Of a DNA stretch of 45,001 nucleotides, positions 2,913 through 45,001 are shown in pieces. Each line of letters starts with the position of its first letter. Within the stretch, counting starts at the first letter, position 1. The notes beneath the pieces were generated by a model, which saw only the letters and a program-made list of their open reading frames with translations, did no database searches and was not told where the DNA came from. Both the position numbers and the translations under genes were made by a program. The DNA is from a virus (Duplodnaviria > Heunggongvirae > Uroviricota > Caudoviricetes), in the IMG/VR virus record IMGVR_UViG_2671180676_000003, one strand, 5' to 3'.

Positions 2913-3557
2913 CTAATGAACGGTCACTCGGCCACAGAACCGGTTTTCTATCTTTTCTACAGCGTTATCTAGCATTCTCATCACTGATCTGGCTCTTGCT
3001 TCAACCGTGCGATATCGGTTGGAAACGACGAAGGTTTGCAGATCTCCCCTTTGCGGATGCAGGTGAATTTTTGTCAGTTCCCCGCACATCAACGCATCAA
3101 TACGAGCGACATACAGACGGTCTAATGATGCTCGTTGTGATCGCAAGTAATCTCGCTCTGAGAGAGCGACTCCCGGGCGTAAGCCAGCAATGGCGTTAAA
3201 GTTTGAAATAGCAGTTTTGTGGCAAAACTTTTCGATATCGAGGGCTAACTCAATACACCGATCTTCATTTGTATGGCCGACCAAATCCAACGTGTAGGCC
3301 ATAACATCAGCAGGTGTGCGATCGATAACAAAGCCTTCAACACCACGCGTAAGTAGCTCTATATGCTTTGCTATTTCCATTTGAATCTGAAGCCGCTCAT
3401 ATAGAGGCATAGAATCACCTACTCGAACACCGAGGCGGCTCATCAAACTTCCGACACCAGCATCCACGTAAGGGATTCCGTAATGTTTGTCGATATATTT
3501 AGCCAGGGTTGTTTTCCCACTGCCCTGAGCACCAGTGATCCCAATCCGGTAATCCAT
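2913..3557 (-). CDS. P-loop nucleoside/deoxynucleotide monophosphate kinase-like protein
   Basis: N-terminal Walker A (GITGAQGSGKTT); size and position beside DHFR/ThyA are consistent with a phage dNMP kinase. Stop/start overlaps the DHFR gene. Confidence 0.55.
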   Translation of the reverse strand: MDYRIGITGAQGSGKTTLAKYIDKHYGIPYVDAGVGSLMSRLGVRVGDSMPLYERLQIQMEIAKHIELLTRGVEGFVIDRTPADVMAYTLDLVGHTNEDRCIELALDIEKFCHKTAISNFNAIAGLRPGVALSERDYLRSQRASLDRLYVARIDALMCGELTKIHLHPQRGDLQTFVVSNRYRTVEARARSVMRMLDNAVEKIENRFCGRVTVH

Positions 3558-14862: not shown

Positions 14863-15116
14863 GTGTTTTTCCTTTGTGGTTATTTTGATACAAATTTTAA
14901 GAGCAATGAGAAGGTAAACAACTATGCATAACGGTATGTTAGGAATGAAACGAGCGTCTTAATATACAAAATTTATAAGTAAGTATATACCTATTTATTG
15001 TGGCGCAACTTTGCTTGTCTGTATGACTAAAAATAAGACAGGATCACTGTAGAACGCTATGAGAGCTATTTTGAGGAGGCGTAGATTCTATCTACGCCAA
15101 TATACGATCTGGAGGG

Positions 15117-15761
15117 TTACAGCGCGTCAGTGGGCTTTTTACGCGCTGCGTTTATGCTTATGACGCCAGCTTTTGGACGTGGGTCAACAAGGTTAAGCTC
15201 TTCTTCGCTGTGGTATTCGAGGTCGAACTCACGTTTTACATGTCTGATGTAGATTGCGGTGAGCAGGCTATCTTTGGTCAGAAAGTGTCCGTAGGATTTG
15301 CGGATCACTTCTTCTACCTTCTCGATTTTCTCACCACCCATACAGAGATGATTAAACCGGCTGTGTTTCCGCAACATTTCGTCTACTGGGCCTGAGTAAA
15401 CCTTGTCTACTTTCCCAAAACGGATGATTTTTCCTGTGTCTGCGGATACGAGGCAAATCAGCTTGTCTGGTGATAAACGATCTCGCCACGTCACACCTGA
15501 ACGGAGTGTGTTGAAGTAGGGGGCATCCAATCCGATGATCGGTTTACGAAATGCGAGTAATGGAACGTACCTGATGCAACTGTTTAAATGAAAATTCACA
15601 CCAGCCTTATCAAGTTTAATTCTGGTTTCGTAGATCGGGCACTTCGCCGCTATACCGCAGATGTCACAAAGCAACTTCTGCTTATTCAGGTTGGAATTTG
15701 ATTCGATAGTGTAGGAGCCGTCTTCAAGACGACGAACCCAGCGCGTGCGTTTTAGATCCAT
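15117..15761 (-). CDS. Hypothetical protein
   Basis: 214 aa ORF containing a CDICG...C cysteine cluster; function unknown. Confidence 0.5.
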   Translation of the reverse strand: MDLKRTRWVRRLEDGSYTIESNSNLNKQKLLCDICGIAAKCPIYETRIKLDKAGVNFHLNSCIRYVPLLAFRKPIIGLDAPYFNTLRSGVTWRDRLSPDKLICLVSADTGKIIRFGKVDKVYSGPVDEMLRKHSRFNHLCMGGEKIEKVEEVIRKSYGHFLTKDSLLTAIYIRHVKREFDLEYHSEEELNLVDPRPKAGVISINAARKKPTDAL

Positions 15762-15846
15762 ATGTCATTTTTCTGTGATTGTTAGCCGAGGCAACGATAA
15801 CCCACCAGGTGCGCCGAAGGTAGTAAATGCCTGTTTTAATTATTCA

Positions 15847-15925
15847 CATATCCACAGGATAGATCCTAATAAAGAGATCCATAGATAGATCCTTATATAG
15901 ATCAAATAAGATCCCCGATCGCTGT
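15847..15925. promoter_or_regulatory. Origin-like region: DnaA-box-like site (ATATCCACA) followed by a cluster of six GATC sites
   Basis: TATCCACA at 15849-15856; GATC at about 15863, 15876, 15888, 15899, 15911 and 15918. This resembles the DnaA box plus GATC-heptamer arrangement of P1-type origins (established knowledge). Confidence 0.45.
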
Positions 15926-15960
15926 AAGCCGCGCCACGACTGGTCTGAAGTCATGTTCAT

Positions 15961-16062
15961 GTATGCTGTCAGCGGTAATTGATAGTCTGTCAGCGGTTCA
16001 CCGTATGCTGCCAACTGTTTTTGGTATTCTGTCAGCGGCAAATCAAGTATGCTGTCAGCGGT
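15961..16062. repeat. Upstream iteron array (about five copies of TATGCTGTCAGCGGT-like 15-mers)
   Basis: Direct repeats (ATGCTGTCAGCGGT, TCTGTCAGCGGT, ATGCTGCCAACTG, TTCTGTCAGCGGC, ATGCTGTCAGCGGT) immediately 5' of the rep gene. Confidence 0.75.
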
Positions 16063-16082
16063 TGAATGACAAAGGTGTCCAC

Positions 16083-17177
16083 ATGTCCACAAAAAATAAA
16101 AAAGGTAAAAATAACAAAGAAGTAGAAGATAACATCGACAACTTTGAAGAAGGTTCCCTTGAATTGTACACAGGGGAACTTGTCCCTAATAGCAACAATA
16201 CAGTCCAACCAATTGCGTTGATGCGACTGGGGTTGTTCGTCCCCACGCTTAAGGGAACAAAATACAGTAAACGTAACAAGCCAAATGAGATCGATGCTTC
16301 AAAGGAGCTTGTCCAGCTCGAAGTAGCCCGTTCTGAAGGCTATTCCGATATCAAGATAACCGGTCCTCGTCTCGACATGGATCATGATTTCAAAACGTGG
16401 GTGGGCGTTGTGCGTTCGCTGGCAGAATACGGCGAACCTAACGGTCGTGTCGAGTTAAGCATCACGAAATTTGCTAAGTTTTGTGGCTATCCATCGTCAC
16501 AGATCCGCAAAACACTCCGCGACCGGCTTACAAACAGTCTTTTGAAGATCATGCGTACAACTCTGTCTTTCCAGAGAACGTATGAAGAAAAGAACGTCGA
16601 CGGCTCTAACAAGATCTCGCTTCTGATGGTGCACCTCATCAATAGCGTGGACTACAACGAGCAGAAAGATACGGTGGTGTTCTATGCAGAACCGAAGCTG
16701 GCCGAACTATATCGCTTTGACCATAAGGTTCTTTTGCAGTTAAAGGTTATCAATAAGCTACCACGCAAAGAAACAGCACAGGCTCTGTACACCTTCATCG
16801 AAAGTCTTCCAACCAAGCCTGCGCCGGTATCGCTTGCTCGATTGCGTGCGCGACTCAATTTGAGTAGCAGGAATGTCAGCTCGCAGAATCAGACTATACG
16901 TAACGGCTTAAAAGCTCTCCAAGATTTGGGCTATCTCGAATACAGCGAGATTAAGCGTGGGCGGTCGATCTATATCCAGATTCACAGCCGCAATCCAAAA
17001 CTCAAAGTCGCACCGCCAAAACCTGAAGACATCGAACCCAAAAAACCAGATGAGAAAGCTGGGGAAATTGATGCCAAACAGAACATTATCAACAAGATAA
17101 CCGAACTTTCGCAGAATTTGACGCCTGAAAATATCAAGATGATTGAGATCCTTTCCAATAGTCTCAAACTGCTTTGA
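16083..17177 (+). CDS. Iteron-binding plasmid replication initiator (Rep), inferred from context
   Basis: 364 aa from the ATG at 16083 (AAAGGTG Shine-Dalgarno); basic N-terminus; flanked on both sides by iteron arrays. The longer ORF start at 15963 lies in the iterons and is rejected. Confidence 0.65.
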   Translation: MSTKNKKGKNNKEVEDNIDNFEEGSLELYTGELVPNSNNTVQPIALMRLGLFVPTLKGTKYSKRNKPNEIDASKELVQLEVARSEGYSDIKITGPRLDMDHDFKTWVGVVRSLAEYGEPNGRVELSITKFAKFCGYPSSQIRKTLRDRLTNSLLKIMRTTLSFQRTYEEKNVDGSNKISLLMVHLINSVDYNEQKDTVVFYAEPKLAELYRFDHKVLLQLKVINKLPRKETAQALYTFIESLPTKPAPVSLARLRARLNLSSRNVSSQNQTIRNGLKALQDLGYLEYSEIKRGRSIYIQIHSRNPKLKVAPPKPEDIEPKKPDEKAGEIDAKQNIINKITELSQNLTPENIKMIEILSNSLKLL

Positions 17178-17709
17178 TATGCTGTCAGCGGTGAAATGTA
17201 TGCTATCAGCGGCTATTTTTCTGAAAAGTATGCTGTGAACGGTTAAAGATATGCTACCAGCGGTATAGTGAGATGAACGTATGCTGTGAGCGGTAAATCA
17301 TCTATCACCACTCAATGCTCTGTCATACCTCCCCAGTGGTTACTAACCTCGAAGAGTGCATTCCATATAGGTTTGCGCTCACTAACATTCTATTGCTATT
17401 GCGCTGATTGCTTGTAGTGAAAGGCATTTATTGCCTGCTACTCCCTGATAGAACGTATGCTGTCAGCGGTGTTTTATTGAGGAATTTTTGTTTGGATATG
17501 CTATCAGCGGTAATTAATGGCATATGTCAGACATTCGTATGCTGCCAGCGGTAATTTTGTTCTGGTTATACCCATACCGGTACACATTATTCATGCAATG
17601 TCTTAAGTATGCTGTCAGCGGTAAAAAATCGAGTAAAGTATGCTGTGAGCGGTGAGATAGACTCTCGATATGCTATCAGCGGTAGTTGATTGTGTATGCT
17701 GTCAGCGGT
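17178..17709. repeat. Downstream iteron array (about 12 copies of the TATGCTGTCAGCGGT family)
   Basis: Copies at about 17178, 17199, 17230, 17251, 17280, 17456, 17497, 17537, 17617, 17638, 17668 and 17695 with minor variants (ATCAGCGG, GTGAGCGG, CCAGCGG); irregular spacing. Confidence 0.8.
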
Positions 17710-17756
17710 GACGACTATGAAATATGACTGCGGAACGTGCCGCAGTCAGTTTGCAT

Positions 17757-17969
17757 TTAGTGTATTTTCTTTAACAGACCCCAAAGTGTTCCGGCTTTTG
17801 TAGTCAGTTTTCCTGTTTCTGGATCGTACATACGCCATTCACGCCGCTGGTGGACGATATACCCATCTTCACGTTCCAGACGCTCAAGAATGCCAGGCTG
17901 CTTGAAACCCTTAGCACGCCAGTAGCCGCTTGTTTTCTCGATTTCCAGACCTGCCAGTGTTAATGCCAT
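17757..17969 (-). CDS. Hypothetical protein
   Basis: 70 aa ORF; start overlaps the stop of the upstream gene. Confidence 0.4.
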   Translation of the reverse strand: MALTLAGLEIEKTSGYWRAKGFKQPGILERLEREDGYIVHQRREWRMYDPETGKLTTKAGTLWGLLKKIH

Positions 17970-18304
17970 TACCCAACCTCCTTGCAGTCATCGAAAAGGT
18001 AGCTTTGCTGAGAAGCGTGAACGCCATAGAAGCCCTTGTATTTGTTGTATACGAAGTGGTCTTCTCCGACGCCGGTTAATTTGCCATTACGATTTGTGAG
18101 ATATGGGGATGACAACACTCGATCGTCACGCACAACATAGAACTGGTCGCCGCTGTCTACGACCATCGCTCCATATGGTGCTTTTATGACGTCGGTAAGA
18201 GCGCCATTCTTAACGTCGGCTACAGACATTTCACACTGATAAACAGTGGTGTCGGCCACAACGATCGAAGAAAGAAACAACAGCGCGAATGGGATGGTCT
18301 TCAT
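17969..18304 (-). CDS. Hypothetical secreted protein
   Basis: 111 aa with an N-terminal signal-peptide-like segment (MKTIPFALLFLSSIVVA). Confidence 0.5.
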   Translation of the reverse strand: MKTIPFALLFLSSIVVADTTVYQCEMSVADVKNGALTDVIKAPYGAMVVDSGDQFYVVRDDRVLSSPYLTNRNGKLTGVGEDHFVYNKYKGFYGVHASQQSYLFDDCKEVG

Positions 18305-18480
18305 GCTGCCACCTCTTTGATTACATCAAATGCTGAATTAAATACGAGCACGATAGCCAAAGCGTTTATGACTACGTCGTGCACCGGGGAAAAGACTTTA
18401 CGAATGACACCAGTGAAAATGCAGTCGATGACAAAAGCTATTGAAACGATGAGTAACAAGTATTCAATAAAAATCTTCAT
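18301..18480 (-). CDS. Hypothetical small membrane protein (59 aa; below the ORF-track cutoff)
   Basis: My own translation: MKIFIEYLLLIVSIAFVIDCIFTGVIRKVFSPVHDVVINALAIVLVFNSAFDVIKEVAA. Its stop overlaps the next gene's ATG as ATGA. Confidence 0.4.
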   Translation of the reverse strand: MKIFIEYLLLIVSIAFVIDCIFTGVIRKVFSPVHDVVINALAIVLVFNSAFDVIKEVAA

Positions 18481-18519
18481 GATAGGTAGATACTAACTTA
18501 TATAAACTTTACTGTAAAC

Positions 18520-19276: not shown

Positions 19277-19323
19277 GTTTTCTTATCCTTTTAAACAAAT
19301 TGTTTTCTTAATAAGATAATTGC

Positions 19324-23987: not shown

Positions 23988-24419
23988 TCAACGGGGAGTA
24001 ATAAAGCGTTCAGAGCCTAATCGCTCTAATTCAACGATAGCCATCTTCGACGCCTGAACGATCATGTCTCGGCGATGCGAAAAGGCGGCGACAGCATGTT
24101 TGTATATGTCTGCGATGTGCCGTGCTTCATCCAACTTCTGCCGTTTAGACAGATACTGTGGGTTTGTTTTAACCTTAGCGTCTAGTACAGATTCGTTAAA
24201 CTTAATGCCGTTCATACTCAAGTTTTTACGCTCTGTGTCGTATAGCTTTGCTTCAACAGCTTCAAGGTTAAGTTTTGCCTCTGCGACACTTCTTTCTGCA
24301 TGGGCGAGCTTTGAACCATACTCCATCAACAGGCGAGGTTGTTTACGCCAGACGTCTTCCAGATTGTCTCTGTCAAACTCGAGATCAGACATTATTTTCT
24401 CGTAAATATCGGTGTTCAT
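23988..24419 (-). CDS. Hypothetical protein (possibly UvsY-like recombination mediator)
   Basis: 143 aa helical protein directly upstream of the gp32-like and RecA-like genes; size and position are the only support. Confidence 0.3.
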   Translation of the reverse strand: MNTDIYEKIMSDLEFDRDNLEDVWRKQPRLLMEYGSKLAHAERSVAEAKLNLEAVEAKLYDTERKNLSMNGIKFNESVLDAKVKTNPQYLSKRQKLDEARHIADIYKHAVAAFSHRRDMIVQASKMAIVELERLGSERFITPR

Positions 24420-24547
24420 ATTGATATGCTCAAACTTACTTTCGTGTATCTGATTATATCAAACAAATAGAGCTTTACTGTCATGATTGGCGGTAGACAG
24501 TATCGGCGCTAAGGTGCAGAATCAGGAGGTACACCGAGCAAAGCAAA

Positions 24548-25546
24548 TTGAGAATAAAACCAATGGATAAGGCTAACAAACAAGTCAAAGCAACAAAGTC
24601 AGTGCCGACTAAAAAAACAGCCCTCCCCCCAAAAGCTAAGTCTGTAAAGCCAGCGGCAGAAAAGAATAAAACTGAAGGTATGACATATCCGAAAACCAGT
24701 GCGGATGGACACGCTGGAGAGTACTTGTTTGCCTATTGGATTTCTCGTTATTTCAGATGGCCTTGTCGATTGCTAGATATTGATATGGGATTGGATGCTC
24801 AGGTTGAAATATATGAAAATAATCTTTCGACAGGTTTTTTTATCGGCGTTCAGATAAAAACCACCTCACGCAAAATGAAGAGAAGGTTAAGCGTACAAAT
24901 ACCTTATAAAAATATAACCTATTGGGGAAGTTGTGATTTTCCTGTGGTAATTGTTTTGATATGCCTACACGATGATAATGAATTAGACGAACCTGCTATT
25001 TATTGGAAGCATTTAGATAAAAAAACAATTTCTAAAATAAAGGATAAAGCATTAAGAAGTGACTCTGGATGTGCTCCTGTAACTTTCAATAAGGATGATT
25101 ATCTGTCTGAATGGGCAGACAAACCAAAGTGGGTCGACATGTGGCTTACAGAAGAAGATAAAGAGATAATTGAGCTTGCAAAGCGAGTAAACAAGACGTT
25201 GCTAGAGATAGGTGTTCCTCTTGATAAATTCGGAGACGAGTATGACCGCAGCACCTACCTGTGTAGCCCTGAGCGGGTAGTACCAGACTTGAACTCTATG
25301 ATGAATGAATATGAAAAAATAAATAACCATATACGTGTAAAGCGTCGATTAGTAGAATTCGATCCTGTAGTGTCGATTTGTTCACAAAATTATGAAAAGT
25401 ATCTACCTAAAATCCTTGAATATTTTGAAGATGTGGTCGCACGTAGTGTCGGTTCATACTCGATTGCAGAACATTTCGAACCATACAGTGATCGTAATCA
25501 TATTCTGAATCGAATAATTATAGAGAAAGCCCCTAATTCAAGATAG
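24548..25546 (+). CDS. Hypothetical protein with Lys-rich N-terminal tail and PD-(D/E)xK-like nuclease core
   Basis: Plus-strand gene in a minus-strand block, AT-rich. Motif GEYLFAYWISRYFRWPCRLLDIDMGLDAQVEIYEN...FIGVQIKTT fits a D..D/E..E.K restriction-endonuclease-like pattern. Start is TTG 24548 or ATG 24563. Confidence 0.5.
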   Translation: MRIKPMDKANKQVKATKSVPTKKTALPPKAKSVKPAAEKNKTEGMTYPKTSADGHAGEYLFAYWISRYFRWPCRLLDIDMGLDAQVEIYENNLSTGFFIGVQIKTTSRKMKRRLSVQIPYKNITYWGSCDFPVVIVLICLHDDNELDEPAIYWKHLDKKTISKIKDKALRSDSGCAPVTFNKDDYLSEWADKPKWVDMWLTEEDKEIIELAKRVNKTLLEIGVPLDKFGDEYDRSTYLCSPERVVPDLNSMMNEYEKINNHIRVKRRLVEFDPVVSICSQNYEKYLPKILEYFEDVVARSVGSYSIAEHFEPYSDRNHILNRIIIEKAPNSR

Positions 25547-25552
25547 TCAAAT

Positions 25553-25590
25553 GAAAAGCTCGTCAATTGACGAGCTTTTCATTAGGCGAC
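25553..25590. terminator. Putative bidirectional terminator hairpin
   Basis: GAAAAGCTCGTC-AATT-GACGAGCTTTTC, a perfect 12-bp stem between convergent genes. Confidence 0.4.
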
Positions 25591-25719
25591 TTTCTTACCA
25601 AAAATATTGGATAGCGTGACTCTGGTCTGGCGCTTCAGCCTGTACTGTCTCACATCGCCAATCTTGTTTACTTCCATAAACTCTTTGCTCTTTGGCCACC
25701 TTCATGGTGTTCGCTTTGT

Positions 25720-35651: not shown

Positions 35652-36473
35652 ATGACTATCCTTGAAAATCCTGATGCGAATGTTGAATCTGTTTATAGTC
35701 TTCATCCAACCACGTTGTTTCATTTTACAAAAAACGAAGATGCTTTCTATAGCATATTGGCTGAGAAATATTTTAAACCATTTCTTGCTCGCGAGGAAAT
35801 AAGAGGAGTCGGGGGACGTAGGAGGTTTGCAGTACCAATGGTATCGTTTTGTGACATAAAACTATCACAAATCAGAGATCATAGCGGAAAATATGGAGAA
35901 TTCGGTCTTGGGCTAACTAAGTCTTGGGCGGAAAAGAAAGGTCTACACCCAGTTCTATATATGAATAAGAGTAGTGAAATATTTTCTAAATACAATGCCA
36001 GAATTCGACTTATTAAAAATAAGTTGGTGCCGCTTTGGAAGGCTAGAGGAAATTTAGATACCAAAAACAGAATAGAGTTTGAGAAATTGAAAGCAGAATA
36101 CTCTGATCTATATAATTTACTGCGTTATATGAAAAATTACAGAGGCAAGCTAGAGCGAAAAGATAATAAAACAATAGAGAATTATATATATGCAGACGAG
36201 AAAGAGTGGCGTTATGTGCCAGCTCCTTTTATTGGTGATTTATGGCCTAGTCTGAGTTTGGAGCGTGTTATCACTTCTGATGACAAAGCAAAAATTAGCT
36301 CAGAATTTTCAAAGTTTGGCATTGATTTTGAGTTCAATGATATAAAATATATACTTATACCTAAAGAACAACATATCCAAAAGCTAATTAACTTTCTCTC
36401 AGGTTTAGATGGATTTGAATCTTCAATTATTAGCAAAATTCTGACCATGGATAAAGTAAAGCAAGATTTTTAA
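35652..36473 (+). CDS. Hypothetical protein, gene A of AT-rich two-gene cassette (candidate defence/abortive-infection component)
   Basis: 273 aa from ATG 35652 (AAGGTG Shine-Dalgarno; the track start GTG 35607 is less likely). About 33-35% GC by hand count against roughly 45-50% for backbone genes. Conserved-looking N-terminal block LHPTTLFHFTK...AVPMVSFCD...GEFGLG. Confidence 0.6.
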   Translation: MTILENPDANVESVYSLHPTTLFHFTKNEDAFYSILAEKYFKPFLAREEIRGVGGRRRFAVPMVSFCDIKLSQIRDHSGKYGEFGLGLTKSWAEKKGLHPVLYMNKSSEIFSKYNARIRLIKNKLVPLWKARGNLDTKNRIEFEKLKAEYSDLYNLLRYMKNYRGKLERKDNKTIENYIYADEKEWRYVPAPFIGDLWPSLSLERVITSDDKAKISSEFSKFGIDFEFNDIKYILIPKEQHIQKLINFLSGLDGFESSIISKILTMDKVKQDF

Positions 36474-36499
36474 TTTTTGGTTTAACGGGAGCCTAATTA

Positions 36500-37711
36500 G
36501 TGTCAATATTTTTAAGCGAAAAGGAAATGCAAAATTGGATAATTGACAAATTATCTGATCAAGATGGATTATATAATTCAATCATCAATATTGATAAATT
36601 AAACGAATTTAATCCGAAAAGACCCGAAGAGAAAAAAATTAAGGAGAGTTATCAGTTTTGTTTAAAGAACATAACATTGTTACATTTAATGACAGATGAT
36701 GAGAATATCTCAGCAACAAAATCTGAGATATTAAGACCTGATGTTGTTGCTTATTCAACAGAGAATGAATCCTTAGTTCTTATTGAGTTAAAAAACTTTT
36801 CAACACCAACAAGGGAAGCTGGAACTGAGTTGGTGGCATATGCTGCGGAACTAAAAAGTTACTTGTCATACTTGTCTGATGGAGATATTACCAATGTACT
36901 TATATCACCTGACTGGCCACCCCTGGTTAGACACTTTATTTTTAATATGATCGTGTGGCAGAAGAAAAACTTTCTATGTTTAGAACCTTGCTATGATTTA
37001 CAAGGTAACGTATCACTTACTCCTTTAGATATTAATAAATTAGTTATTGCGGAAGAAGCACTCAAGTTCTCATTTCGTCATCTTGGTGGGTTTCATATAT
37101 GTTTGTATGATGATGAAATGTATAATAAACCGACTTCAACTTCTCGTTTACATTCGAAATTGAATGTTATTAAAGCCAGCATGGCAAAAATGTCCTCAGA
37201 CGGTGAAAAGACTAATAGCCATGGGTTTGCTATTTTATGTAGAAATTTGAATGAGAGAACTTTAGCGCCATATACGATTACTCTAGTTAATGTTTCTGCG
37301 TTTTCTTCCATAGAGCGATACTTTCATTCGCCACAAATATCCAATGCTTCTCAACTCCCTAGAATAGGACAAAAAATTTATGACATTTACACTCATTACC
37401 AACCATCAGGTTTTGGGGCATCAATGTCGAAAATTTACAATTCTGGGAAGGCATATTTAGAAAAAATTAATTGCAAGCCGCGGATCGAGGTTATAGACAC
37501 CTGGGATGTATTGCAAGCACATACACATGCGCCTTATATGGAAATGGTTCATATTGAAACGTGGGGAGTTTTTAAAGAAAAATTGATTGAAGGTCTAAAT
37601 GAATGTTATGAGGATGAATATTACACACCTGATTTTGACGATGTAGATTTTTGCATGGTGTGTATTGAATCCTTAATTGACCAGAATTATGAATTTATAA
37701 AACTTTTTTGA
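36500..37711 (+). CDS. Hypothetical protein with N-terminal PD-(D/E)xK nuclease motif, gene B of AT-rich two-gene cassette
   Basis: 403 aa; GTG start 26 nt after the gene A stop, with GGGAG Shine-Dalgarno; motif ILRPDVVAY...ESLVLIELKNF fits PD...(D/E)xK; same AT-rich composition as gene A. Confidence 0.6.
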   Translation: MSIFLSEKEMQNWIIDKLSDQDGLYNSIINIDKLNEFNPKRPEEKKIKESYQFCLKNITLLHLMTDDENISATKSEILRPDVVAYSTENESLVLIELKNFSTPTREAGTELVAYAAELKSYLSYLSDGDITNVLISPDWPPLVRHFIFNMIVWQKKNFLCLEPCYDLQGNVSLTPLDINKLVIAEEALKFSFRHLGGFHICLYDDEMYNKPTSTSRLHSKLNVIKASMAKMSSDGEKTNSHGFAILCRNLNERTLAPYTITLVNVSAFSSIERYFHSPQISNASQLPRIGQKIYDIYTHYQPSGFGASMSKIYNSGKAYLEKINCKPRIEVIDTWDVLQAHTHAPYMEMVHIETWGVFKEKLIEGLNECYEDEYYTPDFDDVDFCMVCIESLIDQNYEFIKLF

Positions 37712-37713
37712 AG

Positions 37714-37745
37714 AAAAGGGGCCGAAGCCCCTTTGAATTTTGCGC
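37714..37745 (+). terminator. Intrinsic terminator closing the two-gene cassette
   Basis: AAAGGGGC-CGAA-GCCCCTTT hairpin followed by GAATTTT immediately after the gene B stop. Confidence 0.55.
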
Positions 37746-37888
37746 TGAAAAAAGTGTTGCTAGGATGTTAGCAAGCTATGGTTAAGAACGTCTGCCGTAA
37801 TTGTCTATCACAGCGTTGAGCGGTCTGGTTTATGTTAGCGGAGTCTTAATCGAGTTGATTAAAAGGCCAAACCGCTCAACGCTGTGTC

Positions 37889-37976
37889 TGGCGGAGAGTA
37901 ATGGAATCGAACCATCATCGCTTGCGCAATGGGACGGTTTTCAAGACCGCTTGAGCACCATGCTCCCTACTCTCCG
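37889..37976 (-). tRNA. tRNA-Ser (anticodon UGA), long variable arm
   Basis: Hand-folded: anticodon arm GCGGT-CTTGAAA-ACCGT, long variable arm, T-arm GATGG-TTCGATT-CCATT, encoded CCA. The D-arm fit is imperfect, so boundaries are approximate. Confidence 0.55.
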
Positions 37977-38199
37977 GCCGTTGTGGTGGCCGGTACTGAA
38001 TCTCCGGCATACGGTGCAGCCAATTAGGACTACGGACGATCACCGCTCGCGAAAGGGAAGATTTGCGGCCGCATTTCCCTAACATCCAAGAAAGCTATCG
38101 CATCAGTCTGCGAATCCACCACAACGGTAAGATCACTACCTTTCGACCAGTCATTGTGCACATGAACGACGATTAACCGTAATGATCTTATCGTTGTAT

Positions 38200-38275
38200 T
38201 GGTGCCGGTTAGCGGACTCGAACCGCTGACATCCTGCTTACAAGGCAGGCGCTCTACCAACTGAGCTAAACCGGC
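38200..38275 (-). tRNA. tRNA-Thr (anticodon UGU)
   Basis: Perfect cloverleaf by hand: acceptor GCCGGTT/AACCGGC, D-arm GCTC-AGTTGGTA-GAGC, anticodon arm CCTGC-CTTGTAA-GCAGG, T-arm AGCGG-TTCGAGT-CCGCT, encoded CCA. Confidence 0.9.
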
Positions 38276-38279
38276 AATT

Positions 38280-38366
38280 TGGTGGGGAGTGATGGAGTCG
38301 AACCACCCGAGTCGCAATGACAGTAGATTTACAGTCTACACCGCTACCTCTACGGACTAACTCCCC
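38280..38366 (-). tRNA. tRNA-Tyr (anticodon GUA), long variable arm
   Basis: Acceptor GGGGAGT/ACTCCCC, anticodon arm GTAGA-CTGTAAA-TCTAC, long variable arm, T-loop TTCGACT, encoded CCA. Confidence 0.8.
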
Positions 38367-38371
38367 TAAAT

Positions 38372-38446
38372 TGGCGATGGTGGGTGGATTCGAACCACCG
38401 ACCAGTTGGTTAACAGCCAACTGCTCTACCGCTGAGCTACACCATC
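38372..38446 (-). tRNA. tRNA-Asn (anticodon GUU)
   Basis: Acceptor GATGGTG/CACCATC, D-arm GCTC-AGCGGTA-GAGC, anticodon arm GTTGG-CTGTTAA-CCAAC, T-arm GGTGG-TTCGAAT-CCACC, encoded CCA. Confidence 0.9.
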
Positions 38447-42681: not shown

Positions 42682-42806
42682 ACCAACTCCTAGCTAACAG
42701 ATGAAAGTATTCTTACAAAAAACTAAGTATGTATCTACTTATCATTTTAGGCGCAATAGTTCCCTATACGAAGATGCCGGGCTTATAGTCTGCCCGGCAT
42801 TCACCA

Positions 42807-43220
42807 TTAATGAGCTACAGCCTCACTGTTGCACATCTTTCTGTAGACCTGCTTATAACGCTGTAAGTCATGAGGATCATTAGGTGCCAACGACTTCGAT
42901 AGGATTTTGTATACCACCCCTTTCGAAAACATGCCCTTTGGCTTCATTTCGAGTTCAACAACATATGAGTGATAGCCCACGTATGCACCAAAGCCATTTT
43001 TGGCGTTCAATTCTCCGCACACAAAGCCTGTCACACTCCCATCGTCATGATCAGTCCTGACAAACTTATCTTTCCTAAACATCACCGACGTGGGATCTTT
43101 CATATCATCCGCAATTGCTTGTTGGCCCAGAGCAATAGCCTTCTCATCTGTAGGCTTACACCCCACTAAAGCAAACAAAGACAATAAAGCTCCTGTTAAA
43201 ATCAGCTTATTTTTGCTCAT
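42807..43220 (-). CDS. Hypothetical lipoprotein
   Basis: 137 aa; signal peptide with lipobox (LFALVGC). Confidence 0.6.
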   Translation of the reverse strand: MSKNKLILTGALLSLFALVGCKPTDEKAIALGQQAIADDMKDPTSVMFRKDKFVRTDHDDGSVTGFVCGELNAKNGFGAYVGYHSYVVELEMKPKGMFSKGVVYKILSKSLAPNDPHDLQRYKQVYRKMCNSEAVAH

Positions 43221-43453
43221 GTTGGCTTCCCTTTATTTATATTTATCGCAGGTATTAGTTAATCAAAACACGAGCAGTGCCACAATAATTAAATGGCGTA
43301 CTATTTCTTATGGTTATTAGTTTCCTAGTAACTTTACCGACCATAAACTAAATCAACAAAGCTGACATATTAACTAAATTTAAGTACCATTTTTCGCACA
43401 CTTGACACTTGCCGCGTCTAAACTGTTCATCCTATATCAACAGAACAAAAAAT

Positions 43454-44599
43454 ATGAAATACATAAAATCTTCATCGTTGCTGGCATTAACTTTGCTTTT
43501 TAGCTCTGGATTCGTTAACGCAGACAATAAACAAACGCTGATAGAAGCCGCTACCGCAGGGGATACCGCAGCACAAAGTGAGTTAGGGACAAATTATTTT
43601 GATGGTATCAATGGTTTTGATAAGGATGTAGTTGAGGCCAAGAAGTGGATTGATCTCGCTGCAGAAAAGGGAGACAAAGTAGCATATTATGCACTTGGGG
43701 TTATGTACACATTTGGCGAGGGTGTAGATAAAGACTTAAATAAAGCAGTTGAGTACTACAAACTTGCGGGAGATGCTCGTGAAGGTAGAGCCTATAACAA
43801 TCTTGGTGCTATTTATCAAAAGGGGATGCTTGGTAAAGTAGATCATGCGCTCGCCATTAAATACTTCAAACTAGCCTCTGATGCCGGGTATGTTAAAGCT
43901 AGCTACCTTCTTGGTGCGTATTACCAATATGGTAAAGGTGTACAAAAGAGTTATAAAAAAGCTTTTACTTATTACAAAAAAGCGGCGGATCAAGGTAGTT
44001 CAGATGGCATGTTCGCATTAGGCACCTTATACGATGACGGTTTAGGTGTTAAACGCAACGATGCCGAAGCAATTAAGTGGTATAAAAAAGCTGCTGAACT
44101 CGGAAACGCCGATGCCATGACAAATCTTGGCATTATGTATGAGTATGGTGAAGGGGTTAAAAAAGACTATAAAAAAGCAGCTGAGCTTTATCAGGCTGCT
44201 TGTGATAAAGAAGATAAAAATGGCTGTGATTACATTGCAGAACTGAAAGAAAGCGGCAAATATCGAGCGCCGGCTTCCAAAGCCAAAACAAAATCCGCCA
44301 CCCAGCGACTTATTGCTAAATCCATTGATAAGGGCGTTAACGCTACATTTACCTGGCAGGGTGATGATGCTACCTTCACCGCTAATGATGGCAAAGTTGA
44401 CTGCACCTTTCTGAAGGATTTTTCAGAGAAAGGAGGCAATCTGGCTACCTCGTTTGTTTGCACCGACAACGTTCAAATCATCCTGAAGCAATTCAGAGAT
44501 ACCAAGAATGCCTACCTCGCAGTAATGACTGACAACTTCAATACAGAAGTTAAATCATTTTCGGTCAATGTGTATGTGACTAATACTGGTTCAAACTAG
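43454..44599 (+). CDS. Secreted Sel1-like repeat (SLR/TPR-like) protein with C-terminal domain of unknown function
   Basis: Signal peptide MKYIKSSSLLALTLLFSSGFVNA, then about six Sel1-type repeats (e.g. AxxWYKKAAELGNADAMTNLGIMYEYGEGV) and about 130 aa with no recognisable motif. The track's TTG start at 43409 is less likely. Confidence 0.7.
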   Translation: MKYIKSSSLLALTLLFSSGFVNADNKQTLIEAATAGDTAAQSELGTNYFDGINGFDKDVVEAKKWIDLAAEKGDKVAYYALGVMYTFGEGVDKDLNKAVEYYKLAGDAREGRAYNNLGAIYQKGMLGKVDHALAIKYFKLASDAGYVKASYLLGAYYQYGKGVQKSYKKAFTYYKKAADQGSSDGMFALGTLYDDGLGVKRNDAEAIKWYKKAAELGNADAMTNLGIMYEYGEGVKKDYKKAAELYQAACDKEDKNGCDYIAELKESGKYRAPASKAKTKSATQRLIAKSIDKGVNATFTWQGDDATFTANDGKVDCTFLKDFSEKGGNLATSFVCTDNVQIILKQFRDTKNAYLAVMTDNFNTEVKSFSVNVYVTNTGSN

Positions 44600-45001
44600 T
44601 GCTGCAATGCCTTTCACCTTGCTTAAGAGTTCAAGCTGTCGTGAATAAGGTTTTGCGCAATAGTAGGCTTTGATAATCTGCCCCGGTGTCGCATCGCCGG
44701 GGTCGAGTCCTTCCTCGCCCAAACACGCAACTTTGACATTAAGACCAATACTTGTGAGTCGCCTAGCTGCGGCCATAGTGTTGCGTATAGCTTGCTTTTC
44801 ACTATCCCACATCATGATCACATTACGTAATCCACGCGCCTTGAGCGTCAGGAACGCGCCCAGCTGATCTTCTGCATCCTGAGTGGTGTTGCCAGATAGA
44901 TGCATCCCGAACGTTCCTATTGGTTCCACGTAATCACGTAATGTTTCTTCGTCAAAAATAGCTCGTTTGACCCCCATAACATCGTAAGCGTCAACGGAGC
45001 A
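44591..45001 (-). CDS. Partial CDS (5' end off-window), possibly the TOPRIM-containing C-terminal part of a primase-like protein
   Basis: The frame stays open to the window edge upstream of the first Met; acidic motifs (MMWDSEKQ, GLDPGD) vaguely resemble TOPRIM. Weak. Confidence 0.3.
   Translation of the reverse strand, partial: CSVDAYDVMGVKRAIFDEETLRDYVEPIGTFGMHLSGNTTQDAEDQLGAFLTLKARGLRNVIMMWDSEKQAIRNTMAAARRLTSIGLNVKVACLGEEGLDPGDATPGQIIKAYYCAKPYSRQLELLSKVKGIAALV

Follow-up and report, generated by a model that had tools for sequence, protein, structure and literature searches.

Positions 15840-17750 of the window, by which we mean the whole 45-kb stretch of viral DNA that was analysed, very probably hold the replicon used in the prophage (plasmid) state by a phage-plasmid of the SSU5 group, a replicon homologous by descent to the oriR-repA-incA unit of P1. 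The initial annotation had read the region as an iteron replicon with the organisation of the P1 RepA/oriR type, and the order of its parts (DnaA boxes, GATC sites, five iterons, rep and a second array) matches that of the curated P1 oriR/incC-repA-incA (Table 1). Given that the anatomy is almost identical to the classic P1 plasmid origin, this reading is right. The accompanying label "P1/F-style" holds in its P1 part, whereas "F-style" is looser than needed because the kinship is specifically with the P1/RepFIB branch. The replicon is thus real and was correctly interpreted, but it is an ordinary one and already known, being present in plasmid-typing databases and belonging to a published element family (the SSU5/pECOH89/p09EL50 group). 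Our analysis shows how the sequence is built, that both Rep and the origin core are homologous to P1, that the iterons are under purifying selection and that the element is carried exclusively outside the chromosome; the mechanism is taken from P1. A search of the literature found no experiment on this particular replicon, which by analogy with P1 would be expected to replicate autonomously, to have its iterons bound by Rep, to depend on Dam and SeqA and to be subject to handcuffing.

Table 1. Parts of the replicon, in coordinates of the window.
Feature	Position	Strand	Remarks
Two tandem DnaA boxes	15840-15856	+	Outer edge of the origin; aligns base for base with the annotated P1 oriR DnaA site
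Six GATC (Dam) sites	15862-15920		Corresponds to the P1 oriR methylation/opening region
G+C-rich spacer (..GCCGCGCCACGACTGG..)	15921-15960		Between GATC region and iterons; conserved in P1, SSU5 and Klebsiella relatives (alignment)
Origin (incC-like) array, five iterons	15961-16066	+	Iterons at 15962, 15983, 16004, 16025, 16048
rep, 364 aa, predicted RepA/RepFIB-type iteron-binding initiator	16083-17177	+	Pfam and P1 RepA homology
incA-like array, proximal cluster, five iterons	17177-17294	+	Iterons at 17178, 17199, 17229, 17250, 17280
Iteron-free spacer splitting the downstream array, 160 bp	17295-17454		
incA-like array, distal cluster, seven iterons	17455-17709	+	Iterons at 17456, 17497, 17538, 17608, 17639, 17669, 17695
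G+C-rich hairpin, 9-bp stem	17725-17748		Lies past the array, before the convergent gene 17757-17969

The outer part of the origin is the part most directly comparable with P1 at the DNA level, as positions 15829-15943, which make up the DnaA-box/GATC origin core, share 78% DNA identity with P1 oriR. A DnaA-box-like site had been noticed before rep; the site is there, in the form of two tandem boxes instead of one. Box 1 (TTATTCACA, 15840-15848) is an exact match to TTATNCACA and box 2 (ATATCCACA, 15848-15856) has one mismatch to it, and P1 likewise carries two tandem boxes at the outer edge of its origin. The cluster of six GATC sites was counted exactly; the sites, mostly AGATCC heptamers, lie within about 59-60 bp at spacings of 14, 12, 12, 10 and 7 bp, and the cluster is unique in the window by the criterion of at least four sites within 80 bp. 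These six sites align with the five annotated Dam sites of the P1 heptamer cluster, and their spacing is the same in Klebsiella pJN2-26 and nearly so in SSU5 (13, 12, 12, 10, 7). The IHF consensus WATCAANNNNTTR was found nowhere within the replicon, the GC-skew profile has no clear switch at the origin, and a search of positions 15000-18500 against Rfam (E <= 1) returned no match.

The iterons were located by searching both strands of the whole window for TATGCTGTCAGCGGT with at most three mismatches. This search returned 17 iterons between 15962 and 17709, all of them on the + strand, and one further, unrelated site elsewhere in the window; 0.92 matches are expected by chance, and 18 were reached in none of 100 shuffles. 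According to the information profile, the core of the iteron is 16 bp long (R-TATGCTGTCAGCGGT) and is followed by a weakly A-rich tail. The initial annotation had counted about five copies before rep and about twelve after it, and the numbers are exactly five and exactly twelve (17178-17709). Spacing in the origin array is 21, 21, 21 and 23 bp, as compared with 21, 21, 21 and 22 bp in P1, so that both origins carry five iterons phased at 21 bp. The repeat itself differs from that of P1 (ATGTGTGCTGGAGGG), with which it has only the TGCTG core in common, and relatives whose Rep has diverged (P1, SSU5) keep the layout, each with a distinct iteron sequence of its own. In relatives, change amounted to 8.7% in iterons versus 42.9% in spacers (p = 2.6e-6), and a second comparison gave 1.0% versus 8.1% (p = 3e-4). 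As judged from these comparisons, the iterons are under purifying selection, their rate of change being far below that of the intervening spacers.

The open reading frame proposed for rep is present and is preceded by a Shine-Dalgarno sequence, AAGGTG, at 16072-16077. A longer reading of Rep in RefSeq begins at 15963, which places the start inside iteron 1; most deposited annotations start Rep 40 codons too early in this way and leave the iterons and the origin unmarked. It was also observed that rep is the only gene on the + strand in a block of minus-strand genes. An HMM check of the protein against Rep_3-type families, which the initial annotation had suggested, yielded PF01051 Rep3_N (Rep_3/WH1) at 37.5 bits, above the curated cut-off of 22.4. 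BLASTP aligned Rep with P1 RepA at 46% identity over 278 aa (E 3e-86; P1 residues 20-284 of 286), and by this similarity Rep is a clear homologue of P1/P7 RepA, from which it differs in having an extra N-terminal extension of 31 aa and a C-terminal one of 55 aa. At E <= 1e-5 there are 477 homologues of Rep, and among the 120 matches listed PF01051 occurs in every one. Rep has no match in NCBIfam and, by sequence, no direct one in the PDB, where relatives were found only by fold search. In the latter, the best matches to the AlphaFold model are RctB, RepE and the WH1 domains of pPS10 and MSBI, all iteron initiators; confidence in the model is only moderate (pLDDT 69), and a different arrangement of the domains keeps the global TM-scores to these structures low.

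A candidate rep promoter, TTGGTA (16021-16026) and AAGTAT (16045-16050) separated by 18 nt, lies within the origin array and has a weak -10 hexamer. Its position, among iterons 3-5, is that of the annotated PrepA of P1 (TTGCTA-18-TAGGAT). A scan for the sigma-70 consensus upstream of rep found no + strand promoter, and therefore the argument for autoregulation of rep is one of positional homology to P1. The leader that separates the ATG from the last iteron measures 20 nt here and 59 nt in P1.

The first downstream iteron abuts the stop codon of rep, which is the same junction as in P1, where the second array also begins at the stop codon and is spaced near multiples of the helical turn. Spacing downstream is irregular, ranging from 21 to 176 bp, and is mostly close to such multiples (21, 30 and 41 bp). 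The two arrays differ in that incA of P1 holds nine copies (three direct and six inverted), whereas the twelve copies here are all direct and are split by a 160-bp spacer. This spacer (17295-17454) contains no degenerate iteron with up to five mismatches and has no match in Rfam; it evolves rapidly in EC_T6, and its conservation does not extend to Klebsiella. Natural alleles carry 9, 12 or 13 downstream iterons, and it is the last distal units that vary, three of them being absent from PhiR41_1 and one extra unit being present in p4_0.2. The hairpin beyond the array is likely a bidirectional terminator that marks the right end of the module, and DNA homology to SSU5 starts again at 17759.

The 2.1-kb replicon stretch is 100% identical to Escherichia coli p09EL50 and to about 120 other plasmids of ~110 kb. 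The plasmids that are identical over this stretch are typed by MOB-suite as non-mobilizable, rep_cluster_488. Positions 12000-36999 of the window are 100% identical to NZ_CP157149.1, and the window as a whole differs from p09EL50 by a few indels only, all outside the replicon. Escherichia phage PhiR41_1, deposited as a phage with MG1655 as its host, is 99.3% identical over the replicon stretch. Among 5,426 complete E. coli genomes the replicon is present in 120, at 185 places, all of which are on plasmid records of ~100-120 kb and none on a chromosome. This exclusive location on plasmids lends indirect support to the autonomous low-copy replication that would be expected from P1. The rest of p09EL50 carries annotated capsid, portal, terminase and tail genes, and the replicon lies within an extended run of genes for phage replication and nucleotide metabolism, including nrdAB, thyA, dnaE and a DnaB-like helicase gene. 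The earlier proposal of a lysogenic extrachromosomal phage-plasmid, as opposed to a virulent phage, is borne out by the near identity to p09EL50 and PhiR41_1 and by the plasmid location of all E. coli copies, and it helps to annotate the contig.

According to published work, pECOH89 and p09EL50 are phage-like plasmids of the SSU5 kind that share an identical RepA (PMC3999498), and nothing of substance distinguishes the replicon of this group from the one studied here. The PlasmidFinder type under which published typing reports name the family is IncFIB(H89-PhagePlasmid), a type that is mentioned in 25 papers. Virions have been demonstrated for the relative Cyrano, which carries a different Rep (PMC9928086). 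A preprint on RepA-linked copy-number mutants of a phage-plasmid (10.64898/2026.08.19.745698) was set aside as irrelevant, as it concerns a different family with control of the CopA/IncFII type.

Within the wider group, the replicon of the Salmonella phage SSU5, pLF82/Cyrano and pHCM2 type has the same backbone, flanking genes and layout, as well as the DnaA-box/GATC half of the origin, at 77% DNA identity up to position 15921 of the window. It differs in its Rep, which is only 48% identical, in its iteron (AACCACTGTAGAGAG) and in the mixed orientation of its downstream iterons, and in SSU5 the origin half is tandemly duplicated. It is therefore of a different specificity, and probably of another incompatibility type, with the backbone being common to both. 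The Klebsiella IncpKPHS1/pJN2-26 type is closer, with a Rep that is ~85% identical, the same iteron consensus and the same five-iteron origin and spacing, but it has eight downstream iterons instead of twelve, and its spacers have diverged. For this Klebsiella group, iterons downstream of repA have been reported, four being counted, together with a RepA without a known domain (PMC6735626).

If the replicon works as P1 does, Rep monomers would bind the five phased iterons beside rep, and host DnaA at the two outer boxes would help to open the GATC-rich stretch and to load the helicase. Re-initiation would be limited at the six GATC sites, through their methylation by Dam and the binding of SeqA. 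When it occupies the origin iterons, Rep would also repress transcription of rep, the promoter apparently lying among iterons 3-5. The twelve downstream iterons would keep the copy number low through titration of Rep and through Rep-mediated handcuffing with the origin iterons, in cis and in trans, and they would be the main incompatibility determinant. Iteron control and handcuffing have reportedly been worked out in P1, and it is from there that copy control by the downstream array, by handcuffing and titration, would follow. The same replicon could be governed differently, with the downstream array acting mainly by titrating Rep and not by handcuffing origins. We consider this possible but rather unlikely. 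Twelve high-quality predicted sites against five at the origin would make an effective sink, and the natural variants with 9, 12 and 13 copies fit a dosage-type control equally well. In P1, however, pure titration is insufficient because Rep is autoregulated, and pairing of origins has been demonstrated there. The sequence itself separates neither mode from the other.

It is improbable that the region serves also, or mainly, as an origin of lytic phage DNA replication beyond plasmid maintenance. Its embedding among nrdAB, thyA, dnaE and the DnaB-like helicase gene would suit such a role, but rep stands alone on its strand within the block, the closest characterised relative, P1 oriR, is a plasmid origin in a phage that has a separate lytic replicon, and arrays for low-copy control run counter to the needs of lytic amplification.

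Many direct repeats in a non-coding stretch could also be taken for a partition centromere, a CRISPR-like array or some other repeat with no part in replication, a reading to which we give very little credence. The downstream units have the same sequence as the origin iterons upstream of rep, no cas or par gene is adjacent, and Rfam gave no match. A CRISPR array would have repeats of at least 24 bp at regular spacing, unique spacers of uniform length and cas genes nearby. The units here have a 16-bp core, are spaced irregularly and also occur upstream of rep, and no annotated cas gene lies near the replicon, in agreement with the initial view that a CRISPR array was unlikely. The par operon is adjacent to the replicon in P1 but not here; in p09EL50, ParB-like proteins and a small AAA family ATPase, possibly ParA, are encoded tens of kb away. 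The idea that the repeats flanking rep are attL and attR of an integrated prophage or mobile cassette, as two 20-bp repeats are labelled in the GenBank record of Klebsiella phage pJN2-26, has next to no probability, as these are two of 13 iteron copies in an arrangement equal to that of P1 and the E. coli element is chromosomal at none of its 185 places; we regard the labels as a mis-annotation.

For the plasmid replicon of P1 type, which we retain, the main gain is one of annotation, namely the exact coordinates of the DnaA boxes, the Dam sites and the 5 + 12 iterons, and the likely true start of Rep. Mis-annotations in public records were also spotted, and the DNA of the origin core proved homologous to that of P1 oriR. 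Tentatively, the cassette of iterons, rep and control array (about 15922-17758) could be exchanged as a module that sets specificity, placed between a deeply conserved origin core for host factors, still 78% identical to P1, and conserved backbone genes, although we hold this to be a minority possibility. If it is true, phage-plasmids of the SSU5 type could change their incompatibility type by recombining at these borders, and recombination from iteron to iteron within the downstream array, with its natural alleles of 9, 12 and 13 copies, would adjust copy number and thereby the dosage of cargo genes, those for resistance among them. The natural variants in iteron number offer a simple handle on how copy number is controlled in this clinically widespread group of phage-plasmids, in which ESBL genes are sometimes carried.

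A scan of the 45-kb window with the 15-mer TATGCTGTCAGCGGT, allowing up to three mismatches, returned 18 matches against 0.92 expected by chance, and no shuffle out of 100 reached 18. All but one lie within 15962-17709, every one of these 17 on the plus strand, and a position-wise count gives an iteron core of 16 bp (R-TATGCTGTCAGCGGT) with a weakly A-rich tail behind it. The initial annotation had described a rep ORF preceded by one DnaA-box-like site, six clustered GATC sites and about five iterons, and followed by about twelve more. The ORF, the GATC cluster and both iteron arrays were recovered, with exactly five and twelve copies; the DnaA-box-like site is also present, but consists of a tandem pair of boxes.

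Features of the rep region, in window coordinates
Feature	Position	Strand	Description
DnaA box 1	15840		TTATTCACA, exact to TTATNCACA
DnaA box 2	15848		ATATCCACA, one mismatch; tandem with box 1
GATC cluster, six sites	15862-15920		only group of at least four within 80 bp in the window
Origin iterons, five copies	15962, 15983, 16004, 16025, 16048	+	ahead of rep ORF; spacing 21, 21, 21, 23 bp
rep ORF	16083-17177	+	Rep, 364 aa
Downstream iterons, first group, five copies	17178-17294	+	after rep ORF
Downstream iterons, second group, seven copies	17456-17709	+	after rep ORF
G+C-rich hairpin	17725-17748		terminator-like

The plasmid replicon of phage P1, as annotated in the curated genome record AF234172, opens with a DnaA site and then five Dam sites; next come five incC iterons, the promoter PrepA amid them, then repA and lastly nine incA iterons. 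Scanned identically, P1 and the window each have two DnaA boxes, with five and six GATC sites, respectively, and five origin iterons, whose spacing in P1 (21, 21, 21, 22) differs from that of the window in the last interval alone. The boxes lie 100 bp from the first iteron in P1 and 105 bp in the window, and in both the downstream array begins at the rep stop codon. This match in layout bears out the P1-type origin and incompatibility-array layout proposed initially, and the feature is supported as a textbook P1/RepFIB-type iteron replicon. Given a base-for-base alignment of the DnaA-box/GATC/GC-rich core, and 78% DNA identity between 15829-15943 and P1 oriR (E 3e-17), the likeness is, at the level of sequence, homology beyond mere analogy. 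A candidate rep promoter (TTGGTA-18-AAGTAT), weak and uncalled by a consensus scan, occupies the place of PrepA (TTGCTA-18-TAGGAT). The window departs from P1 in its iteron sequence, which has the TGCTG core alone in common, and in its downstream array, which is divided by a 160-bp iteron-free spacer into five and seven copies, is spaced mostly at 21, 30-31 or 41 bp (30-42 bp in P1), is direct in all 12 copies (three direct and six inverted in P1), and is not followed by a par operon.

The profile check of Rep against Rep_3-type families returned Pfam Rep3_N, the initiator WH1 domain, at 37.5 bits, above the curated cut-off of 22.4. In tblastn searches of phage records, Rep matched P1 and P7 RepA (E 2e-64), RepA of Salmonella phage SSU5 (48% identity) and Klebsiella SSU5-like phages (~85%), and BLASTP against P1 RepA gave 46% identity over 278 residues (E 3e-86), covering residues 20-284 of 286. 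There are 477 relatives at E <= 1e-5 in a large protein database; PF01051 is present in all 120 among the matches listed, and those with names are mostly RepB-family, RepA or RepFIB initiators of Enterobacterales plasmids. A PDB sequence search with Rep gave no direct match. An AlphaFold model with 35 homologues as input (mean pLDDT 69; most of residues 65-305 confident, ~205-240 less so) suggests an iteron-type initiator, its top PDB fold matches being RctB domains 2-3, RepE of F, and the WH1 domains of MSBI1.176 and pPS10 RepA; global TM-scores are low, as expected with a differently arranged pair of winged-helix domains. Compared with the 286-aa P1 RepA, Rep has in addition a Lys-rich, disordered N-terminus and a C-terminal tail of 55 aa (residues 310-364, window 17010-17174), predicted to comprise a disordered linker and two helices.

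The RefSeq/PGAP rep CDS starts at 15963 (product 404 aa), which falls within iteron 1, so that its 40 additional codons (15963-16082) would be translated iterons. AAGGTG precedes the ATG at 16083, rep in the record of Escherichia phage PhiR41_1 begins at the equivalent ATG, and the extent of the P1 RepA alignment is consistent with this position; we take 16083, not 15963, as the true start. Many deposited E. coli plasmid records (hits H95-H114) are rotated to open precisely at 16083, the short Rep start, and the origin and upstream iterons are thereby divided between record ends and easily missed.

Relatives of this replicon retain the layout with a changed sequence. In Klebsiella phage pJN2-26, whose Rep is ~85% identical, the iteron is the same, the five origin copies keep identical spacing, and eight copies lie downstream to the window's twelve. 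SSU5 (Rep 48% identical) has another iteron, AACCACTGTAGAGAG, in the same arrangement. Differences affect 8.7% of iteron positions and 42.9% of spacer positions in the Klebsiella origin array (p 2.6e-6), and 14% and 50%, respectively, in its first four downstream units (p 7e-4). In E. coli EC_T6 (96.7% identical) the values are 1.0% and 8.1% (p 3e-4), a comparison made on the downstream array, as changes in the origin array are too few to be informative. These alignments show that substitutions avoid the iterons, indicating that they are under selection. The number of iterons varies naturally where the downstream array ends distally (17608-17709): an 87-bp iteron-to-iteron deletion leaves nine copies in PhiR41_1, a 26-bp unit duplication in plasmid p4_0.2 (NZ_CP023851) makes thirteen, and in nearly all remaining E. 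coli records, which align gap-free, the count is twelve. The third origin iteron of p4_0.2 lies beyond the three-mismatch threshold. In the pJN2-26 record (MZ779062), the 20-bp repeats flanking rep that are labeled attR/attL (1878-1897 and 3148-3167) are two of the 13 Rep iterons and not attachment sites. In SSU5 the origin half (DnaA box, GATC repeats and iteron set) is tandemly doubled upstream of repA (2271-2499 and 2655-2900), the second copy having lost most GATC sites, and the downstream iterons are of mixed orientation.

DNA homology to SSU5 extends across the upstream gene and then the DnaA/GATC core as far as 15921 (77%), breaks at the iterons and restarts at 17759 (73%), just beyond the hairpin; within rep only two short patches are conserved. 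A break of this extent between conserved flanks suggests that iterons, rep and control array form a unit, and on this alignment the block has the character of a specificity cassette, diverged or exchanged, within a backbone common to both. Such a reading fits pECOH89 and pLF82, whose backbones are almost the same but whose RepA proteins share just 48% identity (PMC3999498).

Plasmid p09EL50 of E. coli O104:H4 2009EL-2050 and several others match the region 15700-17800 at 100% identity, and PhiR41_1 matches it at 99.3%; in all, 121 plasmid records have a coverage of this region of at least 80%. Positions 12000-36999 are 100% identical to plasmid NZ_CP157149.1, and p09EL50 follows the window colinearly at 95-99% identity, save for a few indels outside the replicon. 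Colinearity breaks at 19282-19295, 24419-25787, 35037-37809 and 42742-44645; at ~19290 p09EL50 has ~2 kb (three hypothetical genes) missing from the window, the remaining segments differ, and these breaks lie outside the replicon and reflect a mosaic backbone. In PLSDB p09EL50 is classed as non-mobilizable and its replicon as rep_cluster_488. Elsewhere this plasmid has genes for the major capsid protein, portal, large terminase, tail and tail fibre, for ParB-like proteins and for a small, possibly ParA-like AAA family ATPase, along with a toxin-antitoxin pair. The replicon occurs in 120 of 5,426 complete E. coli genomes, at 185 places, every one of them on a plasmid record and not one chromosomal; this distribution and the phage structural genes of p09EL50 uphold the proposed extrachromosomal phage-plasmid. 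Four tRNA genes lie on the minus strand at 37889-38446 (Ser-TGA, Thr-TGT, Tyr-GTA and Asn-GTT); the pECOH89 paper gives Thr and Asn only.

The anatomy, the P1 homology, selection on the iterons and plasmid-only carriage are established here, and the mechanism is reasoned from the known biology of P1, including the curated feature notes of AF234172. By analogy, Rep monomers would bind the five origin iterons, where Rep would repress its own promoter, and DnaA on the outer boxes would aid opening of the GATC-rich region and helicase loading. Dam methylation and SeqA sequestration at the GATC cluster may limit re-initiation. The downstream array would lower copy number through titration and Rep-mediated pairing with origins (handcuffing), and would set incompatibility. 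Iteron control and handcuffing in P1 are reportedly the subject of Chattoraj in 2000 (PMID 10931340) and of Das and Chattoraj in 2004 (PMID 15491371), both cited in PMC5397158.

The replicon is already known, being of a textbook type in a phage-plasmid family that has been sequenced, typed and published. pECOH89 and p09EL50 are SSU5-like phage-like plasmids with identical RepA (PMC3999498), the latter described in PMC3486847; the type designation IncFIB(H89-PhagePlasmid) is found in 25 papers, and typing tools include SSU5 (IncFIB) replication genes according to a 2025 preprint (10.1101/2025.09.12.675607). For the Klebsiella branch, iterons downstream of repA were noted, with four counted and no RepA domain found (PMC6735626). 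The value left is one of annotation, namely the exact origin features, the Rep start and the mislabelled att sites, to which the natural iteron-number alleles can be added.
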